Shown here one piece after another: positions 975-21,419 of a DNA stretch of 30,002 nt. The notes beneath the pieces were generated by a model. It saw only the letters and a list, made by a program, of their open reading frames with translations, searched no databases and was not told where the DNA came from. This DNA is from Bacteroidales bacterium (GTDB taxonomy: Bacteria; Bacteroidota; Bacteroidia; Bacteroidales; UBA12077). Position 1 is the first letter of the stretch; every line of letters begins with the position of its first letter. The stretch covers positions 1-30,002 of the forward strand of contig JANQHR010000096.1 in assembly GCA_028282585.1 (NCBI GenBank), read 5' to 3'. The translations under genes were made by a program, and so were the position numbers.

Positions 975-998
975 CGATATATATAGTTTTGCATATCC
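975..998 (+). promoter_or_regulatory. ModE-like operator overlapping the Bacteroidota -7 box of wtpA
   Basis: CGATAT-ATATAGTTTTGC-ATATCC. The dyad GATAT-N12-ATATC contains TAGTTTTG (984-991), which fits TAnnTTTG. Confidence 0.65.
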
Positions 999-1020
999 AG
1001 ATTATAAACTTATGTTAATT

Positions 1021-1986
1021 ATGAAACGAATCTCTTTTTTAATAATCATTATAATAGCATTAACATTTGTTAATTGTAAAAATACCGGACAAAAAAAAGG
1101 ACCCGAAAGCAAACAGCTAATCATTTTTCATGCAGGAAGTCTATCTGTACCTTTTAAACAGATGAAAGTACAATTTGAAAAAGAAAACCCAGGAACAAAT
1201 ATATTACTTGAATCTGCAGGTAGCGTAAAATGTGCACGAAAAATAACTGACCTAAAAAAGGAGTGCGATATTATGGCATCGGCAGATTATACAATTATTG
1301 ATAAAATGCTAATCCCGGAATATGCAGAATGGAACATTCAATTTGCTACTAACGAAATGTGCATAGTATATCATGATGAATCAAAATACTCAAAACTAAT
1401 AAATAGCGAAAACTGGTATGAAATTTTATTAAAAGATGATGTAATTTTTGGCAGGTCCGACCCTAACTCTGACCCTTGTGGATATAGAGCCATTTTAAGT
1501 ACCCAGTTAGCCGAAAATTACTACAATTATCTGGGTTTAACCGAAAAAATCAAGAGTAAAAACCAGGAATATATACGCCCAAAAGAAGTTGACCTACTGG
1601 CTCTTCTTGAATCAAATACAATTGATTATATTTTCCTTTATCGTTCGGTTGCTAAACAACACCAGTTAAAATACTTAATATTACCAGATTCTATTAACCT
1701 TAAAACTCCAAAGCTTAACCCACATTATAAAATTGCCAGCATTGATATATTAGGGACAGAACCTGGTACAACAATTACACAATACGGACAGGCTATGGTT
1801 TACGGTTTAACTATTTTGAAAGATGCCCCAAATAAAGACCTGGCTAATAAATTCATAGATTTCGTATTATCGGAAGATAAAGGAAGAAAAATATTAGAAG
1901 AAAACGGACAGCCAGCTATCTTATTAACTGATTCTATTTATCGAAATAAAATTCCGGCAGAATTAAATAAATACTTTTACAGGTAA
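1021..1986 (+). CDS. wtpA: Tungstate/molybdate ABC transporter substrate-binding lipoprotein, WtpA type
   Basis: Lipobox LTFVNC. WtpA motifs FHAGSL, SAGSV..ARKI, ASADY, SDPNSDPCGYR, RPKEVDLLALLE and YRSVAKQH. The start may be 1012 or 1021. Confidence 0.9.
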   Translation: MKRISFLIIIIIALTFVNCKNTGQKKGPESKQLIIFHAGSLSVPFKQMKVQFEKENPGTNILLESAGSVKCARKITDLKKECDIMASADYTIIDKMLIPEYAEWNIQFATNEMCIVYHDESKYSKLINSENWYEILLKDDVIFGRSDPNSDPCGYRAILSTQLAENYYNYLGLTEKIKSKNQEYIRPKEVDLLALLESNTIDYIFLYRSVAKQHQLKYLILPDSINLKTPKLNPHYKIASIDILGTEPGTTITQYGQAMVYGLTILKDAPNKDLANKFIDFVLSEDKGRKILEENGQPAILLTDSIYRNKIPAELNKYFYR

Positions 1987-2002
1987 ATATTTCAAAAAAA
2001 TA

Positions 2003-2060
2003 TTTGATAATTCAAATAGCTTATTATTTTTGCAAGCGATATGCATAAAATTTCATATCA
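2003..2060 (+). promoter_or_regulatory. Second promoter (TTTG ... TAnnTTTG) with a downstream ModE-like operator
   Basis: TTTG at 2003-2006 and TATTTTTG at 2025-2032, then CGATAT-GCATAAAATTTC-ATATCA at 2037-2060 over the expected transcription start. Confidence 0.65.
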
Positions 2061-2665: not shown

Positions 2666-2790
2666 AACACTTTCGGGTGTTCTTTCTCTGAATGCTTACT
2701 GTAAATTTTAAGAAGTTTGCGGTAAGCATTAAAAATAAAGTTTGTGAGCTTTTAAACAACCCAGGGACACCCCTTATAATTACTGTAAAT
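2666..2790 (+). ncRNA. Structured intergenic RNA element (candidate cis-regulatory or stability element)
   Basis: An 18-bp stem at 2691-2730 with three G-U pairs, an outer stem pairing 2675-2684 with 2763-2772, and an alternative UUCG-loop hairpin at 2666-2681. Confidence 0.45.
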
Positions 2791-3694
2791 GATGAAAGTT
2801 TATAAGCTTTTTATTGTTTTCATCTTCTTATGTTTTGCCTTTTCCTGTGCAGAAGATGAACTACCTGAAACTAACCCTTTTGTTATACTTAAACCTGGTG
2901 CTGAATATACACAAAATGGAACTTCTGTACCCATAGGCGGACAAATTAAATTTGGAATATCTGCGGTTGGAGATGGCACTGCCATAACCAATTTAACAAT
3001 ACAAAGAATAACGGATAAAGAAATTATTACAGAATTAGACCAGGGAATGTATATTAAAACCGGAGGCCTGGACACTACAGTAACATTTGTAAAAGGGCCT
3101 GCTGAACATGAAACCTGGCGGTTTATCATCATGAATGGGCATCGAGATACAGCTTCGGTATCAACTATTATTTATTTAGGAGAAGGTAGTGCATACGGTG
3201 AAATTGATTACTTCCCTTCTATCATAATAGGCTTTCAAAATAATACAGAACTACCTTATTACGTGGATTTACATACAGGTAAGGCATATGATAATACAAC
3301 TATTGCAGGGCACGAACCTTCAATTGATTTAACAAGTTATTACTATTTAAGCTCAGGAAAATCTTCTCCTACCCTGTCATGCCCGGGATATGAAACAGCA
3401 AGATATTACCATCCGGAAATAAGCAGCTGGTCTGTTCAAAACTCTACTTTATACGATTATGAAACGACAGACTATGATTTAATCGCAACTGAAGAGTTTG
3501 ATGCTGCGCAAAATGACAGCTTATTAGTTAACGCATATATTCCGAGTAGCGTTAGTGGAACATGTAAATATTGTTATACCGATAAGATCATTCCATTTAA
3601 AACATCTGATGGTAAATACGGATTAATTAAAGTTTTACATGCAGACGAGTTTGATACTGGTTACATGGAACTTGCTGTTAAAATTCAAAAATAA
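2789..3694 (+). CDS. Putative surface lipoprotein with an N-terminal beta-rich domain and a C-terminal domain paralogous to 2095-2664
   Basis: Lipobox FAFS-C followed by AEDE. The C-terminal half has IGFQNN, IDL, SCP, W..QNST and FKTSDGKYGLIKV. Confidence 0.8.
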   Translation: MMKVYKLFIVFIFLCFAFSCAEDELPETNPFVILKPGAEYTQNGTSVPIGGQIKFGISAVGDGTAITNLTIQRITDKEIITELDQGMYIKTGGLDTTVTFVKGPAEHETWRFIIMNGHRDTASVSTIIYLGEGSAYGEIDYFPSIIIGFQNNTELPYYVDLHTGKAYDNTTIAGHEPSIDLTSYYYLSSGKSSPTLSCPGYETARYYHPEISSWSVQNSTLYDYETTDYDLIATEEFDAAQNDSLLVNAYIPSSVSGTCKYCYTDKIIPFKTSDGKYGLIKVLHADEFDTGYMELAVKIQK

Positions 3695-3704
3695 CAATCA
3701 AGCA

Positions 3705-6026
3705 ATGAAAAAATACATGCTTATCATAGCATTTCTGTTATTGATTTTTACAAAACTGTTTGCACAATCAAAACTAAATGGAATTATATACAATTCTGAA
3801 AATAATGAAGTTGTAAGTTATGCCAACATCTCCATTAACGGGCAGGCAGTTGCTGTAAGTAACGAAAAAGGACAGTTTTCAATAGAAAATATAAAACCCG
3901 GAGAATATTCGGTTATTATTTCTTATGTAGGTTATGAGATATTGAAAAAGCAAATCGATATTGATGAAAACAAAATTCAAAACCTTGAATTTAAATTAAA
4001 ACCAACCTCTTACTTAACGGGTGAGGTTGTTATTACAGCTACAAAAACTGAAAATTATATTCAGGATATTCCGGTAAGAGTTAGCATTGTTTCTTCACGG
4101 CAAATAGAAAACATCCCGGCACAAACTACAGATGAACTCCTGAGCTTTGTCCCGGGTGTTAATGTTAGCAGGAATTTTGGGATTTTCTCGCATCATTCAA
4201 GGGTTACCATGCGTGGGCTCAACGGGCAAGAACAAGGCCGTGTGTTGGTAATGGTTGATGGTATCCCCACCAATAAAGCCGATGGTGGTTCTGTAAACTG
4301 GAATTTAATGAATACAGGACAGATTGAGCGCATTGAAGTTGTAAAAGGACCCGGGTCATCACTTTATGGAGGCAATGCAATGGGTGGCGCAATTAATATA
4401 ATTACGAAAAAACCGACCAAGAATTTTCAGGGAAAAGTTAGTGCCAATTATGGGACATATAATACCATAGGCGGTCAACTTTATTTATCCGGCAAGCTAA
4501 ATCCGGAAGCTGAAAAAGGATTTTACTGGAACTTAAACAGTTTTTACAGGCAAAGCGATGGTTACATAACAGCCTCAGAAGCTGAACAACTAGCTAACCC
4601 TTATATTGCTGAATCCGATTTAATGGAATGGGGAACCTCAGCTAAATTGGGATATGATATTAATCCAACTAGCAATATCGAGTTAGGTCTTTTATATTAT
4701 GATGACGATAGGGCCACAGGCGAAAGAGTTTATCAACCCGAAGGAAATAATCGCGAACACGATACTTACCATTTAAAAGCTAAATATTCTGGCAATAAAA
4801 ACAAAACACAATGGAATGTAAGCGTCTTTTATTTGAACGAAGATTATAAGCGAATTAGCGAATGGATGAAAGATGATTACACCTTTTATAAAGTACTTTC
4901 AAACAGAATTGATTTTGGCGTTTTATCAACTTTATCGTATGATTTGGATAAACATATTATAACCGTAGGAATAGACCTTAAACAAGGAAGCGTTGATGCT
5001 ATAGATGAATATTTTACGTCTACTGATATTGTTTACAATAGGGGTAAAATGAATACTTTTGGGTTATTCATTCAGGACGAAATTCATTTATTTGATGATA
5101 AAATCAAAATTGTTGCCGGGCTTCGGTTCGATTACGCTAACTTTTTTGATGGAGGATTCGAAATTGAAGCACCTACATCAGAAACTACATTTATGCTAAA
5201 TTATCATAATGAAAATCTTTCTGAAGATAATTGGAACGCACTGAGCCCAAAGTTATCATTACAATATAAGTTTAATAACAACTACCGAATTTATGTCAAT
5301 TATGCCAGAGGATTCAGGCCTCCGGTACTAGACGATATGTGCCGCTCGGGCAGAATCAGAGGTGGATTTAAAGTTTCCGACCCAAGTTTGCAACCTGAAT
5401 ACCTAAATAATTTTGAACTAGGCGCTGATACCAGGTTACTTGACCGCCTAAGAACTTCCTTGTCTGCGTATTACTCTCTTGGAAACGATTTTATGTATTA
5501 TGTAAATACAGGGGATTCGATTCAGTTTAGTTATGGCCCAAGGCCAATTATTAAAGCTTCAAATATTTCTGAAGTTGAGATCTATGGATTTGAATTCGAA
5601 GTTAATTACAGATTCTTGGAAAACATTATCCTGAATACCAATTATGCTTATGCACATTCACAAATTACTAATTACGAGCCTTTAAATATGGATGATCCGA
5701 TTGATTTAACCAACAAATATCTTGCGGATGTTCCCAACCATATGGCTACAGCCACTTTACAATGGCAAAATAAAATTGTGAATGCGGGAATAACAGCTAA
5801 ATACACAGGCAAACGCTGGGTAAATGATACGAACCAATATGATGATATTGTTCAGGATAACCAATACGATGCATATACCATTATGGATTTAAAATTGTCC
5901 AAATCAATCAAAAAAATATTTGTAAGCCTTAATGTTCAGAATATTCTGGACACTAAGTTTTACAACAGCAAAGGGGCCGTTAATCCCGGCAGGTTTATAA
6001 CATTTGAATTAGGAACAAGATTTTAA
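3705..6026 (+). CDS. TonB-dependent outer-membrane receptor (BtuB/CirA-like) with an N-terminal carboxypeptidase-regulatory-like domain
   Basis: The ATG at 3705 gives the signal peptide MKKYMLIIAFLLLIFTKLFA. TonB box EVVITATKT, plug motifs VLVMVDGIP and IERIEVVKGPGSSLYGGNAMGGAINIITKK, and a C-terminal Phe (ELGTRF). Confidence 0.93.
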   Translation: MKKYMLIIAFLLLIFTKLFAQSKLNGIIYNSENNEVVSYANISINGQAVAVSNEKGQFSIENIKPGEYSVIISYVGYEILKKQIDIDENKIQNLEFKLKPTSYLTGEVVITATKTENYIQDIPVRVSIVSSRQIENIPAQTTDELLSFVPGVNVSRNFGIFSHHSRVTMRGLNGQEQGRVLVMVDGIPTNKADGGSVNWNLMNTGQIERIEVVKGPGSSLYGGNAMGGAINIITKKPTKNFQGKVSANYGTYNTIGGQLYLSGKLNPEAEKGFYWNLNSFYRQSDGYITASEAEQLANPYIAESDLMEWGTSAKLGYDINPTSNIELGLLYYDDDRATGERVYQPEGNNREHDTYHLKAKYSGNKNKTQWNVSVFYLNEDYKRISEWMKDDYTFYKVLSNRIDFGVLSTLSYDLDKHIITVGIDLKQGSVDAIDEYFTSTDIVYNRGKMNTFGLFIQDEIHLFDDKIKIVAGLRFDYANFFDGGFEIEAPTSETTFMLNYHNENLSEDNWNALSPKLSLQYKFNNNYRIYVNYARGFRPPVLDDMCRSGRIRGGFKVSDPSLQPEYLNNFELGADTRLLDRLRTSLSAYYSLGNDFMYYVNTGDSIQFSYGPRPIIKASNISEVEIYGFEFEVNYRFLENIILNTNYAYAHSQITNYEPLNMDDPIDLTNKYLADVPNHMATATLQWQNKIVNAGITAKYTGKRWVNDTNQYDDIVQDNQYDAYTIMDLKLSKSIKKIFVSLNVQNILDTKFYNSKGAVNPGRFITFELGTRF

Positions 6027-6040
6027 TAAAAACACTTTAT

Positions 6041-7105
6041 ATGAAAAATTACTTTTTAATAGCATTTGCAGGATTGGTGTTATCATCCTGTAATGTTAAC
6101 GACACAAATGAAAATAATTATTTAAGACAAACTACCGCAGATAATATTGATGCTACCAATGATTTCTACGATAATGCAGAAACTTTCGAATTACCAGTAA
6201 AATCAATAGCCATAGAAGGAGAAATTGAAAATCCCGGAATAGTCGATTTTTCAAAAATACCATTAAGAAGTATTATTGTTAAGGAAACCTTACTAACAGA
6301 AAATGGCGATCAATTTGTTGGTGCATATAGATATGATGGTTATGCCCTTTATGATATCCTGAACCTCGTTAAATTAAATAAAAAGAATAAAGAAGAATTT
6401 AACCCAATTATCGATTTGTATGTTCAACTGGAAAATGATAAAGGAGAAAAAGTTAATATTAGTTGGGGGGAAATCTTTTATCCAAACCATTTACAGGAAA
6501 TCATCATTGCCAAAAGGGTAATGCGAATCGTTCCTTCAAAAACAAAAGAATTATGGCCACTGCCTGTTTCAGGTAAGTTGGTTGTTGCAAGCGATTTGAT
6601 TACGGAAAGAAACATCTCTGATCCTGTAAAAATAACCGTAAAATCTTACCCAAAATCTTTTGAAACCGTTAAAGGACTAAAGCCTTTATATTCTCCTACC
6701 ATAGATATTTTTGATGAAAATAAAAAAGTAGTTACTTTGACTGAGAATCCTAAGGAATTGCAAATAGAAGAGTATCATACTATTTTTTATGGCAGGGGAA
6801 AGGGTATTCATTCTACACAACCATTTACAGGAGTTATGCTTAGAGATATTTTAAAAGATTATATAGAATTTAACAAAAAAAATATCCGTGAAGGGATTTT
6901 TTTAGTTGTTGCAAAAGATGGTTATAGAGGAACTTTCACTTTTAGCGAAGTAATGAATAGAAATGACCAATCGGAGATTTTATTGGTTTGCCGCCCGGAA
7001 GTAAATGATAATGGTATATTTCGTTTATTCCCTGCGTGCGACTTTTTCTCTGACAGAGCAATAAAAGGAATCAACGCTATTTATTTTTCGGCTAACGAAC
7101 AGTAA
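6041..7105 (+). CDS. Lipoprotein with two tandem molybdopterin-oxidoreductase-like (sulfite oxidase/MsrP fold) domains
   Basis: Lipobox LVLSS-C. Repeat 1: YDGYALYDIL..ENDKGEKVNISWGEI..KLVVASD..RNISDPVKITV. Repeat 2: FTGVMLRDIL..AKDGYRGTFTFSEV..FRLFPACD..RAIKGINAIYF. Confidence 0.65.
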   Translation: MKNYFLIAFAGLVLSSCNVNDTNENNYLRQTTADNIDATNDFYDNAETFELPVKSIAIEGEIENPGIVDFSKIPLRSIIVKETLLTENGDQFVGAYRYDGYALYDILNLVKLNKKNKEEFNPIIDLYVQLENDKGEKVNISWGEIFYPNHLQEIIIAKRVMRIVPSKTKELWPLPVSGKLVVASDLITERNISDPVKITVKSYPKSFETVKGLKPLYSPTIDIFDENKKVVTLTENPKELQIEEYHTIFYGRGKGIHSTQPFTGVMLRDILKDYIEFNKKNIREGIFLVVAKDGYRGTFTFSEVMNRNDQSEILLVCRPEVNDNGIFRLFPACDFFSDRAIKGINAIYFSANEQ

Positions 7106-7107
7106 AA

Positions 7108-7902
7108 ATGTATAAGAACAAGTTAAGGAGTTTAGACATAGTATTTATATTTCTTGGAGGGCTGGTACTGTTATTCATTATTAGCCCGCTTCTTGGCATG
7201 TTTTTATCTACTACACCAATCCAATTATTTGAAACATCTAAAGATCCTGAAGTTCTAAAAAGTATTTGGTTAACCTTGAGAGTTTCATTCCTTGCCACTA
7301 TTTTTTTTGCTATTGGTGCAATTCCCCTTTCTTACTTCTTGGCCAGAAGTAATTTTAGGCTTAAAAAGCTAATTAACGGAATTATTGATTTACCAATAGT
7401 TATTCCTCATTCTGCAGCTGGAATAGCAATTCTTGGCTTTATTTCGCGTGATTCAGTTTTAGGAAAAATAGCTTCATCCGTAGGATTAAATTTTGTAGGG
7501 CACCCGGTTGGAATAGCATTAGCCATGGCCTTTGTAAGCATCCCTTTTCTAATTAATGCTGCCCGCGATGGTTTTGAAAACGTACCGGTAAAACTTGAAA
7601 AAACTGCATTAAACTTAGGTGCTTCGCCAGTTCGAGTTTTCTTTTCTATTTCTTTGCCCCTGGCATGGAAAAATATATTATCAGGACTGGTCATGATGTT
7701 TGCCCGAGGTTTAAGCGAATTCGGAGCTGTAGTTATTGTAGCATACCACCCAATGATTACACCTGTTATGATTTATGAGCGTTTCGGCTCATTCGGTCTC
7801 AAATATGCACGACCCATTTCTGTGTTGTTTATCCTGATTTGTTTAATATTCTTCATTTTATTGCGAGCTTTAACTAAAGAAAAGGAACATAGAAATGCTT
7901 GA
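7108..7902 (+). CDS. wtpB: Tungstate/molybdate ABC transporter permease (WtpB/ModB)
   Basis: Multi-TM protein with IIDLPIVIPHSAAG, the EAA loop LEKTALNLGASPVRVFFSISLPLA, and ARGLSEFGA. Confidence 0.9.
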   Translation: MYKNKLRSLDIVFIFLGGLVLLFIISPLLGMFLSTTPIQLFETSKDPEVLKSIWLTLRVSFLATIFFAIGAIPLSYFLARSNFRLKKLINGIIDLPIVIPHSAAGIAILGFISRDSVLGKIASSVGLNFVGHPVGIALAMAFVSIPFLINAARDGFENVPVKLEKTALNLGASPVRVFFSISLPLAWKNILSGLVMMFARGLSEFGAVVIVAYHPMITPVMIYERFGSFGLKYARPISVLFILICLIFFILLRALTKEKEHRNA

Positions 7903-8932
7903 GTTAAAAAACATATCGGTTAAGCTAGGTGAATTTCAGCTCAAGAATATTAACCTGCAATTAGAAAAAGGAGATTATTATGTTCTTTTAGGTAAATCCG
8001 GTGTTGGTAAAACGGTACTTCTGGAGATAATAGCTGGTTTAATAAAACATAGAGCCGGACAGGTAATTCTAAATAATGTAGATATCACAAACCATAAAAT
8101 TCAAAACAGAAAAGTTGGGATAGTTTTTCAAGATTATTCCATCTTTCCTCATCTTAATGTATGGCAAAACATTTTATTTCCTATAAAAAAAAGGAAAATT
8201 AGTAAAAAGCGTAAAGAGGAACTTGTTAAAAAATTTGCGGAACTAACTAATATTTCGCATCTTTTAGATAGAAATCCCCAGAACTTGTCCGGAGGCGAAT
8301 TACAACGTGTTGCTTTGGCTCGTACTCTAATAACTGAACCTGTTTGCCTTCTGCTCGACGAACCATTAGCCTCACTTGATGTGCAATTAAAAAATGGCTT
8401 AAGAAACTTACTTAGAAAAATTAACCATAATGGTGTAACGATATTACACGTAACACACGATTATGAAGAAGCCATTGCTTTATCAAACAAAGTAGCTGTT
8501 GTTCACGAAGGAGAAATAATTCAAAAGGGTCTTACCAAAGAAGTATTTAAAAGGCCAGCTAATGAGTTTGTCGCAAATTTTACTGGAATAAAAAACTTCT
8601 TCATCGCAGAATTTTTACCAGAAAATATTGCAAAAATAAATGGTAAGATACAAATAAAAGTATCTAATAAAGCCAACTTGCAAAAAGGGAGAATTATCAT
8701 TAGGGGAGAAGAGATTATATTATCAAATAATAAAATTGAATCCAGCGCAACAAACAATTTTAAAGGAAAAATTTTACAAATCATTCCGTATTTAGCCAAT
8801 TACGAAATTATAGTCGATATTGGAATTGAACTTTCAGTTGTTATTTCGGAAGAATCACTCCATATATTAAGTATAAAAGAAGGCTATGAAATTTGGGCAT
8901 CTTTTAAATCTACTGCTATGAAGGTTATATAA
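7895..8932 (+). CDS. wtpC: Tungstate/molybdate ABC transporter ATPase with C-terminal TOBE domain (WtpC/ModC)
   Basis: Walker A GKSGVGKT, signature LSGGELQR, Walker B LLLDEP, H-loop VTHD and TOBE SSATNNFKG...FKS. Overlaps the permease stop. Confidence 0.9.
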   Translation: MLELKNISVKLGEFQLKNINLQLEKGDYYVLLGKSGVGKTVLLEIIAGLIKHRAGQVILNNVDITNHKIQNRKVGIVFQDYSIFPHLNVWQNILFPIKKRKISKKRKEELVKKFAELTNISHLLDRNPQNLSGGELQRVALARTLITEPVCLLLDEPLASLDVQLKNGLRNLLRKINHNGVTILHVTHDYEEAIALSNKVAVVHEGEIIQKGLTKEVFKRPANEFVANFTGIKNFFIAEFLPENIAKINGKIQIKVSNKANLQKGRIIIRGEEIILSNNKIESSATNNFKGKILQIIPYLANYEIIVDIGIELSVVISEESLHILSIKEGYEIWASFKSTAMKVI

Positions 8933-12303: not shown

Positions 12304-12533
12304 TACAAACTTAGATTTGAGAATTTGCGCTTTATTTACTAATTCCTATCATTTAGTTAGTTCATCACTGCTCTTTTTTTTAGATCCATAATACCATTAA
12401 AAAACAAAAACGCAATAACATATCAAAGTTAGAAAAACTTTATCATTTTCATCCTTTAATCAAGATTAAGCGATAAAGTTCTTTAACTATGTTATTTCTA
12501 TTTGTTATAAAACTAACCTTAAAAATTAAAATA

Positions 12534-12785
12534 ATGAACATTTATGTAGGCAACCTTGATTATAAGGTAAATGAAGAAGACTTAAGAAGTATGTTTGAAG
12601 AATTTGGAAACATTAGCTCCGTAAAAATTATTATCGACAAATATAACGGAAGAAGTAAAGGATTTGGATTTGTCGAAATGGAAGAAGGTGGAAAAAATGC
12701 TATCCAGACGTTAAATGGTAAAACATTTAAGAACCGGGAAATTATTGTAAACGAGGCTAGGTCTAAAAGAGATTTCAACAGATAA
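12534..12785 (+). CDS. Single-RRM RNA-binding protein (Bacteroidota Rbp type)
   Basis: MNIYVGNL (RNP2) and SKGFGFVEM (RNP1). The likely start is ATG 12534. Confidence 0.92.
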   Translation: MNIYVGNLDYKVNEEDLRSMFEEFGNISSVKIIIDKYNGRSKGFGFVEMEEGGKNAIQTLNGKTFKNREIIVNEARSKRDFNR

Positions 12786-12890
12786 GTATTAAAGTCTTTA
12801 GTTTAATTAAAACTCTTTTCAGCAATTTAATCAATGCCTTTGTATCTTTTATACGATAAAAGATTATTTTACTATTTAACAAAAAATCGC

Positions 12891-13757
12891 ATGAGGCAAC
12901 TAAAAATTACAAAACAAATAACTCATCGAAATGAAGATTCCATTAACAGGTACTTTCATGAGATAAGCAAATATACAGTTCTTAGTGCTGAGGAAGAAGT
13001 TGAGCTAACAGTAAAAATTAGAAAAGGTGATGATGTCGCTTTAGAAAAATTAATAGTTGCCAATTTAAGATTTGTTATTTCTGTTGCAAAGCAATATCAA
13101 AATCATGGATTATCATTTTCCGATTTAATCAATGAAGGAAATGTAGGACTAGTTAAAGCAGCTAAAAAGTTTGATGAAACAAGAGGCTTTAAATTTATAT
13201 CATACGCAGTATGGTGGATTAGGCAATGTATTATTCAAGCCATTTCCGAACAAACCAGAACCGTTAGGTTACCCTTAAACAGGTTAACATCTATTAATAA
13301 AATTGGAAAAGCCTCTCTTTATTTGGAACAGGAATTTGAAAGAACACCAACCAACGAAGAACTTGCTGCTTATTTGGAGCTTTCAACTGAAGAAGTTCAA
13401 ACTGCAAACTTTATTAAACAAAAACAGGTATCTTTTGATATGCCAATTTCAAAAGATAACGATAGTGATGCGAATTTATATGATTTTGTTCAAACGGATA
13501 CTATACCATCACCAGATAATAATTTAATTCAAGAATCATTAACAACTAATATTTCGAGAGCATTGAGTAAACTGTCATTAAGAGAAGCAGAAATACTGAC
13601 TATGTTCTATGGGTTGAATAAAACGAAAACTTACCGTTTAAATGATATAGCCTTAAGGTTTGATATGACAACAGAAAGGGTTCGTCAAATTAAAAGCAGG
13701 GCACTCGTAAGGTTAAAGAGCGTACTTAAAGAAAATTATGCTATTTTAGAAAATTAA
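12891..13757 (+). CDS. Sigma-70 factor, RpoD/SigA-like Bacteroidota type, probably a secondary paralog
   Basis: MRQLKITKQIT start; region 2 ANLRFVISVAKQY..DLINEGNVGLVKAAKKFDETRGFKFISYAVWWIRQ; region 4 TTERVRQIKSRAL; no region 1.1. Confidence 0.9.
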   Translation: MRQLKITKQITHRNEDSINRYFHEISKYTVLSAEEEVELTVKIRKGDDVALEKLIVANLRFVISVAKQYQNHGLSFSDLINEGNVGLVKAAKKFDETRGFKFISYAVWWIRQCIIQAISEQTRTVRLPLNRLTSINKIGKASLYLEQEFERTPTNEELAAYLELSTEEVQTANFIKQKQVSFDMPISKDNDSDANLYDFVQTDTIPSPDNNLIQESLTTNISRALSKLSLREAEILTMFYGLNKTKTYRLNDIALRFDMTTERVRQIKSRALVRLKSVLKENYAILEN

Positions 13758-13790
13758 AAAATAAATAATATAATCACCTAACAAATATTT

Positions 13791-14240
13791 ATGGGCAGAT
13801 CACAAGAAACTTTTAACAAGAAGGAAGTTAGACAGAGAAAAGAAAAAAAGAGAAAAGAAAAAGCTCAAAAAAGATTAGAGAAGAAGGAAAATGAAAAGAA
13901 AAATTCGTTAAACGACATGATTGCTTACGTTGACGAAAATGGTGTAATTAGTTCAACGCCACCCGATCCGGATAAAAAATCTAAAGTTAAAGCAGAAGAA
14001 ATTGAACTAGGTGTTCCCTCTCGAAATAACGAAGATGATGATCCAACAAGAACAGGTATAGTTTCTCATTTTAACCAATCAAAAGGTTTTGGTTTTATAA
14101 AAGATTCTGTTACAAAACAAGGTATATTTTTCCATATCAATAATGTAACCGGAGATGTCATTGAAGGAAACAAAGTTCAATTTGAAATTGAAAACGGACC
14201 AAAAGGACCCACAGCTATAAAAGTTATTAAAGTTAAGTAG
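13791..14240 (+). CDS. Cold-shock-domain protein with basic N-terminal extension
   Basis: Lys/Glu-rich N-terminus (MGRSQETFNKKE...), then AYVDENG, then the CSD GIVSHFNQSKGFGFI..IFFHI..GPKGPTA. Confidence 0.9.
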   Translation: MGRSQETFNKKEVRQRKEKKRKEKAQKRLEKKENEKKNSLNDMIAYVDENGVISSTPPDPDKKSKVKAEEIELGVPSRNNEDDDPTRTGIVSHFNQSKGFGFIKDSVTKQGIFFHINNVTGDVIEGNKVQFEIENGPKGPTAIKVIKVK

Positions 14241-16340: not shown

Positions 16341-17189
16341 CTAATCGATAGAAGAAATCAAATCTTTTACTAAAATCAAATATTGGCGAGAAACAGGTAT
16401 ATAATGATCTAAATTTCTCATTTTTAAACGATAACCACTATAATTCCTTTCTAATTTTGTAACATATAACATATTAACAATGCTCGTACGATGACAGCGA
16501 ATAAACTCTGGTAGTTGTACTAATTGTGTTTCAATATTTTTTAATGTGTTTCTGACTAATTTTTTTTCTGTTACATCTTTTACCATGTAATAAATCTCAA
16601 TATAATTATCAGCTGATTGTACCGAAATAATATTCCTATACTTTATGCTTATCTTATCCGATCTACTATCGGAATATATATGAACTATTTCTTCTTTTTC
16701 ATTACTTTCAAGTTGCTGGATTTTGGTTTCATATAATTTATTCTTGTTCTGAAGAATCTCGATTATAAGTTCCTGCGATTTATTTTTATATAGAATATTC
16801 AGAATAATTAAAGGCAATAAACTCACCAAGAAGATTTTAAATAAAATATACAAAGTCAAAACCGTATGTCCAACATACCTGATATAAAAAGCATTAGCGG
16901 TAATGGTAAAAATCAATAATAGAATAATCAGAAGTTGCGAAGGCCCGCTCTCCCATTCACTTATTTTAAACCATTTTGTAAAAAACATTGGAATAATAAC
17001 CAATATTAGAAAACTAAATAAAAATGTAATCCCACCAAATCCTGTTACATATAGTAATCGGTTATCATCGGTAAGCATATCTAATGGAAATGGCTGAAAA
17101 AAGAGAATAAACAGAAAAACCCCAATAGCAATAAAAAATAAACGTGCCAGCTCGTTTTTAAGAGAATTTTTTGTTTCTGTATTTCGCAT
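16341..17189 (-). CDS. Membrane-anchored LytTR-family transcriptional regulator (4 TM + LytTR)
   Basis: Four hydrophobic segments, then SADNYIEIYY, RNTLKNIE, FIRCHRTSIVN and IPVSRQY. The likely start is ATG 17189. Confidence 0.9.
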   Translation of the reverse strand: MRNTETKNSLKNELARLFFIAIGVFLFILFFQPFPLDMLTDDNRLLYVTGFGGITFLFSFLILVIIPMFFTKWFKISEWESGPSQLLIILLLIFTITANAFYIRYVGHTVLTLYILFKIFLVSLLPLIILNILYKNKSQELIIEILQNKNKLYETKIQQLESNEKEEIVHIYSDSRSDKISIKYRNIISVQSADNYIEIYYMVKDVTEKKLVRNTLKNIETQLVQLPEFIRCHRTSIVNMLYVTKLERNYSGYRLKMRNLDHYIPVSRQYLILVKDLISSID

Positions 17190-17347
17190 TCGGTAAATTT
17201 TGTTAAAGTTACGCAAAGATTCCAGTCTTTCATATAATTTATATTACATATAAATTTGAGCTATTATTTGCAGCATTGAATAAAACGAAAATATGTAACT
17301 AAAGAAATAATAATTAGATTTGATAAAAATACTTAAAGTTCCTTGTT

Positions 17348-19215: not shown

Positions 19216-19265
19216 ATTCAGAAAGCTTATATTTAACCATGCCGGTAGCATATAATTTAATATCG

Positions 19266-20297
19266 ATGATTAAAAAGTTCCTTTTTATTATTTGCTTTCT
19301 TTGTTTTAAGCTTGCGCTTACTCATGCAACAAGTATTAAAGGGCAGATTGAAATTGGAGGATCATGGGAAAATCTAATCTATTTATCGGGAATTAATTCG
19401 TTTAATGATTTAAATACGGCATCGTATGATTTTTTAATTGCTCGTACCGAAATAGATTCCAACGGATATTTTGAATTTGAAAACCTGAACCTTCATGATG
19501 ATGAAAGATTATATCGTTTACATATTTGTAAAACAGGAGATCCTGTTTCGACTATTATTATTGGAGGAAATGAAGAAAACTTTATTCATTTTATTATGAA
19601 AGATGGTGATAGCATTGAAGTTAACGTAAATCCGGAATCAGCCGCTTTTTATAACAGTACCGTTTTTGGTAATCAAGCTAATAAGTACCTTAGTTTACTC
19701 TTTCGCAGGCAAAAAGAACTGAATTCTCCTCCTAGTTTACCATCAGTGCAAAGCCGCCAGCTATTGCGAGAGAAAGTACTTAACGATTATTATAACATTG
19801 CTGATACATCATCTTATACTATCATTCAATTGCTTAGTATCTACTTGATCAATACTACTTTTTCATCATCCGGACATTTAAACTTAATGGAAAAAATTCA
19901 AGCCGGGACTCAACCTTCAGATACATCAAGTCCCTACTACAAAGCATTTTTGGATGAATTATCATATCTGAAGTATCAAAGCAAACAACAGTCCAGAACT
20001 AAAACTATTTGGGTAATTATAATTGTCATTTTACTTGTGATAATAAGTATACTCATTCCAAAGTTGATTAGAAGTAAAACTACAGGAAATAAACTGGATA
20101 ATAAATTTTCTGAATTAATCAACCAACTTTCATTACAGGAAAAACGCGTACTTGATTTGTTAAAAGAAGGAAAAACCAATAAAGAAATTTCAAATGAGTT
20201 ACACATTGAAGTTAGCACTGTTAAAAGTCATTTGAATAAAATCTATTCCAGGTTAGGAATAAGTGGTCGTAAAGACATTCTTAATTCTGATTGGTAA
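19266..20297 (+). CDS. Transmembrane one-component regulator: periplasmic domain, TM helix, LuxR-type HTH
   Basis: N-terminal signal/TM, TM IWVIIIVILLVIISILI, and LSLQEKRVLDLLKEGKTNKEISNELHIEVSTVKSHLNKIYSRLG. Confidence 0.88.
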   Translation: MIKKFLFIICFLCFKLALTHATSIKGQIEIGGSWENLIYLSGINSFNDLNTASYDFLIARTEIDSNGYFEFENLNLHDDERLYRLHICKTGDPVSTIIIGGNEENFIHFIMKDGDSIEVNVNPESAAFYNSTVFGNQANKYLSLLFRRQKELNSPPSLPSVQSRQLLREKVLNDYYNIADTSSYTIIQLLSIYLINTTFSSSGHLNLMEKIQAGTQPSDTSSPYYKAFLDELSYLKYQSKQQSRTKTIWVIIIVILLVIISILIPKLIRSKTTGNKLDNKFSELINQLSLQEKRVLDLLKEGKTNKEISNELHIEVSTVKSHLNKIYSRLGISGRKDILNSDW

Positions 20298-20335: not shown

Positions 20336-20932
20336 TTACTTTCCTAAAAGTTCTTTATTAAACCTTAAAATTTCATTTAAGCTTGCCATCTCTTTGCGAA
20401 TAGCACTTCGAATCGACAATCCTACGATCAATGCAGCAACAAGAAAAGATAAATCAATCAATATCATAATTTTCGAATTAAAATAAAGACTGAACTCAGG
20501 TGTTAGCATAAAAAATCCCACCGAATAAATTACCAGGATACTTATAGTAACAAAGCCATGTATAAACTTTCGTAACTTATGATATGTAAATGCATTTGTA
20601 TTCGTTTTTAAGGCTGTCTCGCTTATATCAATCTTCCTTGATAAAAAGATACTGTAAAGTTCAAGTACAATTCGAATTGATAAACTTCCAAGCATAAGAG
20701 CAACTCCCACTTTACTTAGCAACTGGTTGAATGGTGCTACATTTTTAAAGAAAAGACCTAAACCAAACAGAACTAAAATAAGTATCACCAGATTTGTAAT
20801 TTGAACTTTTAGAGCTTTTTTCTTTTTTTGTCCAGCCTGCAAAATAATTTCGCTTACAGGTGTATTTGAATCTTCAAAACTATTTTGTCCGCTTTTCCAG
20901 ATTTCTTTTATATCATCAATATTACTTTTCAT
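20336..20932 (-). CDS. Four-TM membrane protein, probable anti-sigma factor
   Basis: Overlaps the ECF sigma stop; N-terminal DDIKEIWKS motif followed by four TM helices. Confidence 0.7.
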   Translation of the reverse strand: MKSNIDDIKEIWKSGQNSFEDSNTPVSEIILQAGQKKKKALKVQITNLVILILVLFGLGLFFKNVAPFNQLLSKVGVALMLGSLSIRIVLELYSIFLSRKIDISETALKTNTNAFTYHKLRKFIHGFVTISILVIYSVGFFMLTPEFSLYFNSKIMILIDLSFLVAALIVGLSIRSAIRKEMASLNEILRFNKELLGK

Positions 20933-21419
20933 TTTCCATAATTTCTTTAAGTGTCTTTTTAATACGATGAATCTTTACTCTTAAATTTCCTTCACTAATT
21001 CCCATGACTTCCGAAATAAGAGCGTAATCCGATTCATCTAAAACCATCATAATAATTAACCGATCAACTTCATTTAACTTACCAATTGATTGGTAAAGAG
21101 TATCAAATTGCTTTGTAGGACTCAATTCTTCATCTCTAGTTTCCTCACTTATCTCAACATTTGAGATGGTTAACTTATTTTTCTTATCCCGAATATATTT
21201 AAGGCACGTATTAACCGCTATCCTGTATACCCAGGTTTTATAACTCGACTGAGCTTTGAATCTATCCAGCGCATTCCATACACTTATAAAAACCTCCTGC
21301 GACAAATCCTTGGCCAGTTCGTGTTCTCCCTTCATATATCCCAAACATAATTGCATTACCATGGACTTAAACTGTTTATGCAGATCTTCAAATAAGTCCT
21401 TCTTTTTCTTACTCCTCAT
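20922..21419 (-). CDS. ECF-type sigma-70 factor
   Basis: Region 2 AKDLSQEVFISVW..SSYKTWVYRIAVNTCL; region 4 ISEVMGISEGNLRVKIHRIKK. Confidence 0.92.
   Translation of the reverse strand: MRSKKKKDLFEDLHKQFKSMVMQLCLGYMKGEHELAKDLSQEVFISVWNALDRFKAQSSYKTWVYRIAVNTCLKYIRDKKNKLTISNVEISEETRDEELSPTKQFDTLYQSIGKLNEVDRLIIMMVLDESDYALISEVMGISEGNLRVKIHRIKKTLKEIMENEK

Follow-up and report, generated by a model that had tools for sequence, protein, structure and literature searches.

The wtp locus and its paired palindromes

We analyzed a 30,002-nucleotide stretch of DNA (the window), which forms contig C172 of the genome assembly of a Bacteroidales bacterium (4.89 Mb, 173 contigs, 31.9% G+C, 98.35% complete). 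The window carries wtpA, the gene for the substrate-binding lipoprotein of a tungstate ABC transporter, followed after a 108-nt gap by six tightly packed genes on the same strand. These six combine parts of a wtpBC-like transporter with outer-membrane genes in one apparent operon. Two palindromes lie at the promoters of wtpA and of this operon. Their reading as ModE-type operators is supported by the analysis below, and we consider it quite probable that they are the sites of a small ModE-like repressor, here called ModEN. The features of the locus are listed below, with scores from the position weight matrix (PWM) described in the following section.

975..998: operator 1, a 24-bp ModE-type box CGATATA-N10-CATATCC at the wtpA promoter; PWM score 21.1, third in the genome
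984..991, plus strand: candidate -7 box TAGTTTTG, enclosed by operator 1
1012..1986, plus strand: wtpA, tungstate ABC-transporter substrate-binding lipoprotein, with the ATG at 1021 as likelier start; Pfam SBP_bac_11
2003..2006, plus strand: candidate -33 element TTTG of the lipoprotein-receptor operon
2025..2032, plus strand: candidate -7 box TATTTTTG of the lipoprotein-receptor operon
2037..2060: operator 2, a 24-bp ModE-type box CGATATG-N10-CATATCA over the expected transcription start; PWM score 24.5, best in the genome
2095..2664, plus strand: 189-aa lipoprotein, first gene of the operon; no Pfam family, weak NigD-like match (20.1 bits, cut-off 60)
2789..3694, plus strand: 301-aa protein; no Pfam or NCBIfam match, Atlas neighbours are Bacteroidota hypothetical proteins
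3639..6026, plus strand: TonB-dependent receptor with plug, beta-barrel and CarboxypepD_reg domains; best NCBIfam subfamilies under their cut-offs
6041..7105, plus strand: 354-aa lipoprotein with, in its predicted structure, two PruR/sulfite-oxidase-type (pterin/Moco-binding-like) domains
7108..7902, plus strand: wtpB-like ABC permease, BPD_transp_1; best match NF040839 at 274 bits, under the cut-off of 340
7895..8932, plus strand: wtpC-like ABC ATPase with a C-terminal TOBE domain; best match NF040840 at 352.8 bits, under the cut-off of 440

WtpA clears the equivalog cut-offs of both NF003196 (378.2 vs 355) and TIGR03730 (325.6 vs 242.75). The 189-aa lipoprotein gene is syntenic in relatives. 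No terminator-like site was found in 850-2150, and hence none between wtpA and the receptor operon.

A preliminary description of this DNA had noted that the two palindromes share identical arms and spacing, and both strings are indeed present: CGATAT-ATATAGTTTTG-CATATC at 975-997 (site 1) and CGATAT-GCATAAAATTT-CATATC at 2037-2059 (site 2). The internal ATA...TT that it also took to be shared carries no weight. The two spacers are identical at 6 of 12 positions (counted by eye), and in relatives the spacer of the box is conserved only where it holds a -7 box. The true inverted-repeat form is GATAT-N12-ATATC, at 976-997 and 2038-2059. It occurs exactly twice in the window, compared with a mean of 0.04 in 100 dinucleotide-preserving shuffles, none of which contained two or more copies. 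The palindrome pair is real and not a product of chance.

Bacteroidetes promoters follow the consensus TTTG about 19 nt before a TAnnTTTG element centred near -7. The plus strand of 901-2110 holds TAnnTTTG at just two places, 984-991 and 2025-2032. Site 1 encloses the first of these, the candidate -7 box of wtpA, and site 2 starts 4 nt past the second. Because that -7 box ends 4 nt before operator 2, transcription is expected to start on the left arm of the operator. Both placements agree with the repressor positions claimed in the preliminary description. A sigma-70 promoter scan returned 8 promoters against 7.5 expected and is uninformative for this phylum.

The box is conserved and marks a tungsten regulon

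Among 36 genomes of the same genus, we found a WtpA orthologue in 30; among 24 from other families of the order, in 7. For footprinting, we searched the wtpA loci of 29 relatives for the core GATATG-N10-CATATC of the extended box CGATATG-N10-CATATCG, allowing at most two mismatches within 150 nt upstream of the gene. The box was present in 23 of the 29, and each of three scrambled-arm controls gave 0 of 29. The box-anchored consensus of 24 wtpA upstream sequences is tCGaTATGtTTAttTTTgCATATCc, in which the arms are conserved to at least 80%, the flanks are unconserved and the TAnnTTTG within the box is retained. Wherever the lipoprotein gene follows wtpA (eight relatives and the window), the box precedes it (9/9), and the promoter context is fixed in these nine loci as tTTG, 18 nt, TATTTTTG, 4 nt and CGATATG. 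Half-site variants GTTATG/CATAAC and GACATG/CATGTC occur and are often symmetric. Since different variants coexist within one genome, we regard them as tolerated degeneracy. Outside the family, one genome (G051) has both the motif and ModEN, and another (G060) has neither.

Within the assembly itself, GATAT-N12-ATATC gave 22 matches, compared with 5 for the pattern read backwards. Nineteen of the 22 lie inside open reading frames (ORFs) of at least 100 aa, and a twentieth, C31:829, lies in an ORF running off its contig, which leaves just the window pair as exact matches in non-coding DNA. Allowing one mismatch to the box gave 23 sites. Coding sequence holds 19 of them, and the four outside genes are the window pair plus two on contig C92. 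We then ranked sites with a 24-nt PWM built from 24 non-redundant sites of relatives, from which those of this assembly were excluded. The highest scores fell on C172:2037 (24.5), C92:58787 (22.0) and C172:975 (21.1), with a further intergenic site at C92:55405 (17.5). The C92 boxes lie 87-89 nt before two tandem genes of 717 and 718 aa with AFOR_N and AFOR_C domains, which place them in the aldehyde:ferredoxin oxidoreductase (AOR) family of tungsten enzymes. The 30 AOR gene starts examined in the genus, to which locus L103 contributed no row, all have a site scoring at least 12 within 300 nt. In 29 of the 30 it reads CGATATG-N10-CATATTG and lies 85-109 nt before the ATG. A conserved TAacTTTG follows the AOR box after 41 nt, so that the box is centred near -65, beside the -33 region, in an activator-like position.

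Two features of the AOR loci are recorded separately. A strongly conserved block of about 25 nt, ATTGATTTAAGTCATTTTATAC, lies between the AOR box and the -7 box, and the AOR genes adjoin two genes of the ThiF family and one DUF364 'heavy-metal chelation' gene (C92:53163-58810; L074 9164-14800).

In relatives, the box also stands before a second lipoprotein-receptor operon that runs into an HD-domain gene, moeA, moaA and moaC, and before the regulator gene modEN. It further precedes an operon encoding L-glutamate gamma-semialdehyde dehydrogenase (TIGR01236, 775.8 vs 613.6) and piperideine-6-carboxylate dehydrogenase (NF050084, 785.4 vs 730), where it overlaps the -7 element in congeners (L064 9491-12856; equivalents in L065-L073). 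This placement suggests that one mode of aldehyde oxidation, NAD-dependent or tungsten-dependent, is exchanged for the other. In our assembly, the dehydrogenase operon falls in a gap, and none of the four molybdopterin-oxidoreductase-family genes or the one xanthine-dehydrogenase-family gene has a box. The window palindromes belong to a coherent tungsten/molybdenum (W/Mo) regulon, which ties the outer-membrane genes to W/Mo acquisition through their regulation. The independent link between these genes and the two metals that the preliminary description had claimed is thereby borne out.

A ModE DNA-binding domain protein is encoded beside the box in congeners

The preliminary description had also proposed a genome scan, footprinting of orthologous promoters and a search for a ModE-family gene. 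The first found a rare motif with its non-coding copies confined to tungsten-related promoters, and the second found the box where the scrambled controls found nothing. The third yielded a family gene, with its own box, in most congeners: TIGR00637 (ModE_repress) matches in 33 of 36, mostly with E-values of 1e-18 to 1e-23. The frames are about 125-160 aa long and in many genomes share a contig with wtpA. ModEN has 125 aa and is 86% conserved over 13 genomes. It matches PF00126 with 33.9 bits against a cut-off of 26.6, and its best matches in the PDB are 2ijl_A (E 2.5e-12, residues 25-113) and E. coli ModE 1o7l/1b9m (E 2.3e-7, N-domain only). Judged by these matches, ModEN is the winged-helix DNA-binding domain of ModE alone and not a full ModE. 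Thus, of the ModE regulator originally envisaged, the family gene is there in congeners, with the DNA-binding domain only, without the Mop/TOBE sensor and with no copy in the assembly.

We counted boxes before modEN in loci fetched from public genomes, whose record titles are all of Bacteroidales/Marinilabiliales-type metagenome genomes. Among the 30 closest of these loci, 26 have a box 12-26 nt ahead of the gene, as do 10 of the 48 more distant ones (37/80 in all), which points to probable autoregulation of modEN. ModEN is also the only DNA-binding protein seen inside the regulon in the conserved neighbourhoods of relatives. A homodimer model of ModEN reached an ipSAE interface score of 0.51, compared with 0.00 for the best control, with at least 94% contact agreement between runs and a pLDDT (predicted local distance difference test) of at least 81. 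Of proteins with solved structures, 20 of 30 determined as pairs reach the ipSAE mark, compared with 1 of 23 determined as single chains. The modelled interface comprises the strand at residues 11-23 and the C-terminal helix. The model supports a ModEN homodimer, with the reservation that the pass may only reflect likeness to solved dimers (1b9m, 2ijl).

Several other genes accompany modEN. A 246-aa protein with a TiaS-N/methanogenesis-marker-11-like domain (L064 7738-8478) and a 193-aa protein (7218-7799) follow modEN in 18 of 36 congeners, and their genes always occur with the second receptor operon. The co-operonic 246-aa protein was considered as an obligatory sensor and dropped, because it is present in only these 18. 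A 93-aa PpnP-like (nucleoside phosphorylase) gene lies between two divergent boxes beside modEN in most congeners (L065 4867-5148, L066 4300-4581); in the closest relative it is a pseudogene with in-frame stops (L064 8857-9560).

The syntenic place of modEN lies in an assembly gap

In the closest relative, whose WtpA is 87% identical, the whole modEN-wtpA region lies on one contig. One strand carries the order moaC-moaA-moeA-HD-receptor-lipoprotein, the 193-aa gene, the 246-aa gene and modEN, and the other carries the two dehydrogenases, a 235-aa ORF and wtpA. In our assembly, contig C15 opens within the receptor gene, at residue 243, and C172 begins shortly ahead of a 236-aa ORF. The syntenic place of modEN lies between the ends of these two contigs, and the genes between the receptor and the 236-aa ORF have no close match anywhere in the assembly. 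In the closest relative, the missing segment spans about 7.3 kb and comprises modEN plus five or six other genes. A PF00126 search of the assembly returned one ordinary LysR protein and weak noise.

We compared the relative's region L064 with the contigs of X1, the one public sequencing run that contains the window and its probable source. A 7281-nt X1 contig covers the missing interval exactly (L064 5554-12927), modEN included, and its piece spanning modEN is about 85% like the relative. On L064, the X1 counterpart of C15 ends at 5529 and that of C172 begins at 12958, and the depths are similar (15.3 for the 7281-nt contig vs 11.5 and 13.6). From these alignments, modEN probably exists in the source organism on an unbinned contig.

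Comparison with known ModE systems

Upstream of modA in E. coli K-12, 19 nt before the start codon, lies CGTTATA-N10-CATAACG, which has the same 7+10+7 frame as the Bacteroidales box and which we take to be the footprinted operator. Its half-sites GTTAT/ATAAC also occur as a variant in several Bacteroidales sites. In the accessible text of PMC545781, the E. coli ModE consensus is given as ATCGNTATATA-N6-TATATANCGAT; it has the same 24-bp frame between the outer CG pairs, CGnTAT...ATAnCG. The ModE geometry claimed in the preliminary description is thus found both in this consensus and at E. coli modA. The two systems further share like targets (an oxyanion ABC transporter, cofactor synthesis and pterin enzymes) and a homologous DNA-binding domain, and E. 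coli ModE is named a dual regulator in its K-12 record, in a family known both to repress and to activate. In contrast to E. coli ModE, the Bacteroidales regulator has 125 aa and lacks Mop/TOBE, and its box mostly has G instead of A at position 7 and surrounds a -7 element of the Bacteroidetes type. WtpABC takes the place of ModABC as transporter, and the regulon adds AOR tungsten-type enzymes, two NAD-dependent aldehyde dehydrogenases and operons with TonB-dependent receptors.

Domain-only ModE proteins, later described as TunR, also occur in Desulfovibrio and Desulfotalea. According to the accessible text of PMC545781, these proteins consist of the DNA-binding domain alone, and how they sense their ligand is stated to be unclear. 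Like the Bacteroidales system, they pair an unfused ModE DNA-binding domain with palindromes upstream of oxyanion transporter genes. Their predicted motif, CGGTCACG-N14-CGTGACCG, is unlike the E. coli type, whereas the Bacteroidales box keeps E. coli-type half-sites and spacing. Desulfovibrio also has separate Mop-fusion proteins in its mod cluster (PMC545781), whereas none were found in the Bacteroidales genus. PDB entry 2ijl, a 135-aa 'molybdenum-binding transcriptional repressor', resembles ModEN in size and is essentially the N-domain alone, with moderate sequence similarity; we found no functional or operator data for it. In the available part of PMC11672702, molybdate binding by ModE is assigned to the C-terminal Mop domain, and a Moco riboswitch is described as controlling molybdate transport and cofactor genes in many bacteria. 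Such a riboswitch is an RNA element, unlike the protein-bound box, and neither it nor any other Rfam family matched anywhere in the window, so the locus does not make use of it.

A ModE-type operator pair is a known kind of element. The features that set this case apart are the sensor-less regulator, the box around the -7 element and a regulon with TonB-dependent receptor operons and AOR enzymes. Full-text literature searches, judged mostly by their result listings and with subscription literature and RegPrecise-type databases outside their scope, returned no description of such a regulon.

Proposed mechanism and its alternatives

We propose that the homodimeric 125-aa ModEN would bind both window palindromes as operators, with the half-sites flanking the candidate -7 box at wtpA. 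A dimer bound at both operators would therefore block RNA polymerase at both promoters, and uptake of tungstate (or molybdate) would be shut off when the metal is sufficient. Metal-replete ModEN would repress uptake, its own gene and the NAD-dependent dehydrogenases, and would activate the AOR genes. Site position and family analogy are the grounds on which ModEN may be expected to bind the box, to repress by binding and to respond to tungstate or molybdate. Tungstate is the likelier signal because of WtpA and the AORs. The preliminary description had assigned repression to Mo/W; the positions of the sites fit this, and the repression itself stays an argument from position and family. We judge it quite probable that a sensor-less ModE-like homodimer, with its gene in the gap upstream of the window, represses both promoters.

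A number of observations weigh against this explanation. Searched with TIGR00637, the assembly has no ModE at E 0.001, and at E 10 the only match is one of 0.32 in a 465-aa frame. The 7281-nt X1 contig could belong to a co-resident strain. The TIGR00637 scores of ModEN (68-82 bits) are under the curated cut-off of 98.5, and ModEN has no match to the Mop/TOBE domain, the molybdate-binding part of ModE. No stand-alone Mop or molbindin was found in 37 genomes, where the TOBE matches are ABC-ATPase-sized frames and three short frames; one of the latter (G036) runs off a contig end, one starts at contig base 39, and the third, in G002, was not examined. In our assembly, the TOBE domain of the WtpC-like ATPase is the only one. 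Because ModEN has no Mop/TOBE and the genus no stand-alone Mop that we found, there is no known route from metal to DNA binding. The box is missing from 6 of the 29 wtpA loci (L018, L022, L033, L034, L042 and L046). The first of these belongs to the closest relative, where the wtpA site has three mismatches. Operator 1 has A at box position 7, where the consensus has G, and genome G049, which is 82% complete, has the motif with ModEN not found. Finally, the Bacteroidales PWM scores the E. coli modA site at only 1.8, which is not significant, so the likeness to the E. coli box lies in layout and half-site letters and not in the PWM score.

The serious alternative is that ModEN binds the boxes without simple metal-dependent repression. 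Binding could instead serve constitutive basal autoregulation, depend on an unknown co-factor protein or follow another signal (cofactor, pterin or redox). C-terminally truncated E. coli ModE represses modA without molybdate. The lack of Mop/TOBE in ModEN and of a stand-alone Mop in the genus favors this alternative, as do the statements in PMC545781 on unclear sensing and in PMC11672702 on the Mop domain cited above, and a 246-aa protein present in half of the congeners (18/36) is no general sensor. It is hard to explain without a metal-linked signal, however, why one regulon should unite uptake, cofactor synthesis, the regulator and tungsten enzymes under both repressor-like and activator-like sites. 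Tungstate negative feedback on WtpA is moreover reported for Pyrococcus in the accessible text of PMC10221389. On this evidence we consider the alternative rather unlikely, while it is the one to be taken most seriously.

A different transcription factor might read the palindrome, its co-occurrence with a ModE-like gene being incidental. Candidates are encoded in the window itself (LytTR at 16341-17216, GerE at 19239-20297 and an ECF sigma factor at 20922-21419), and ModEN was not found in the assembly. In relatives, however, the LytTR, GerE and ECF sigma genes lie outside the conserved neighbourhood, in which ModEN is the sole DNA-binding protein, and the box, which has the layout of the ModE consensus, immediately precedes modEN in 26 of the 30 closest loci; another factor is therefore improbable. 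Still less probable, to the point of being negligible, is that the palindromes work at the RNA level (as hairpin, terminator or attenuator) or represent chance or duplicated AT-rich promoter sequence. The genome is AT-rich at 31.9% G+C, and site 2 sits 51 nt past the wtpA stop codon, a plausible place for a terminator. The palindromes nevertheless fold no better than shuffles (z -0.11 and -0.97), and neither a terminator-like site in 850-2150 nor an Rfam family in the window was detected. In many genomes and at five different classes of promoter, the arms keep their sequence while the spacers vary freely, and shuffles and scrambled controls give essentially no matches.

The ModEN-operator explanation bears on two poorly known subjects, namely the outer-membrane passage of tungstate and molybdate in Gram-negatives and metal sensing by many sensor-less ModE proteins. 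One highly specific operator links WtpABC and the TonB-dependent receptor operons, which include a pterin-binding-like lipoprotein, to cofactor synthesis and to AOR enzymes as well as the NAD-dependent alternatives to these enzymes. The outcome is a testable tungsten regulon for abundant uncultured anaerobic Bacteroidales, together with a defined DNA probe and protein for binding studies.

The 354-aa lipoprotein and possible outer-membrane uptake

We examined the AlphaFold2 model of the 354-aa lipoprotein (pLDDT 84.3), which consists of two domains of the sulfite-oxidase/YedY/PruR pterin-binding fold. In the VIA comparison with PruR chains, residues 54-201 aligned with Z 11.0 and an rmsd (root-mean-square deviation) of 2.3 over 113 residues, and residues 219-350 with Z 10.5 and an rmsd of 2.5 over 117 residues. 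There were 45 chains at Z of at least 8; those listed all have the sulfite-oxidase/PruR fold except one integrative model, and the next match has Z 5.6. The same fold was seen in Foldseek matches. The protein is assigned to no family. Its unnamed homologues number more than 2300, and the source-named ones among 120 listed are all called hypothetical. The fold of the lipoprotein resembles PF00174, yet a search of the genome did not detect that family. The predicted fold would link the outer-membrane genes to Mo/W-pterin chemistry a second time, on structural grounds, and the protein may handle pterin- or carrier-bound W/Mo.

More tentatively, a sensor-less ModE-domain protein might run a whole tungsten economy, shutting TonB-dependent uptake, repressing NAD-dependent semialdehyde dehydrogenases and switching on tungsten-dependent aldehyde oxidoreductases. 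The metal signal would arrive by an undescribed route, through binding by the N-domain dimer or through a partner. We regard this broader scheme as possible and, taken as a whole, somewhat doubtful. Within it, the receptor, the two lipoproteins and the pterin/Moco-type lipoprotein may import pterin- or carrier-bound W/Mo, not the free oxyanion.

Congeners without a receptor operon after wtpA carry a 413-414-aa protein with no NCBIfam match between wtpA and wtpB, which may be an alternative outer-membrane channel. Its loci are as follows.

L066 15116-16357: 413-414-aa protein
L069 3818-5062: 413-414-aa protein
L070 6300-7544: 413-414-aa protein
L071 18567-19811: 413-414-aa protein

Elsewhere in the window, and unrelated to the boxes, three consecutive genes at 12489-14240 encode a protein with an RRM domain, a full-length sigma-70 (regions 1.2-4) and a protein with a cold-shock domain.

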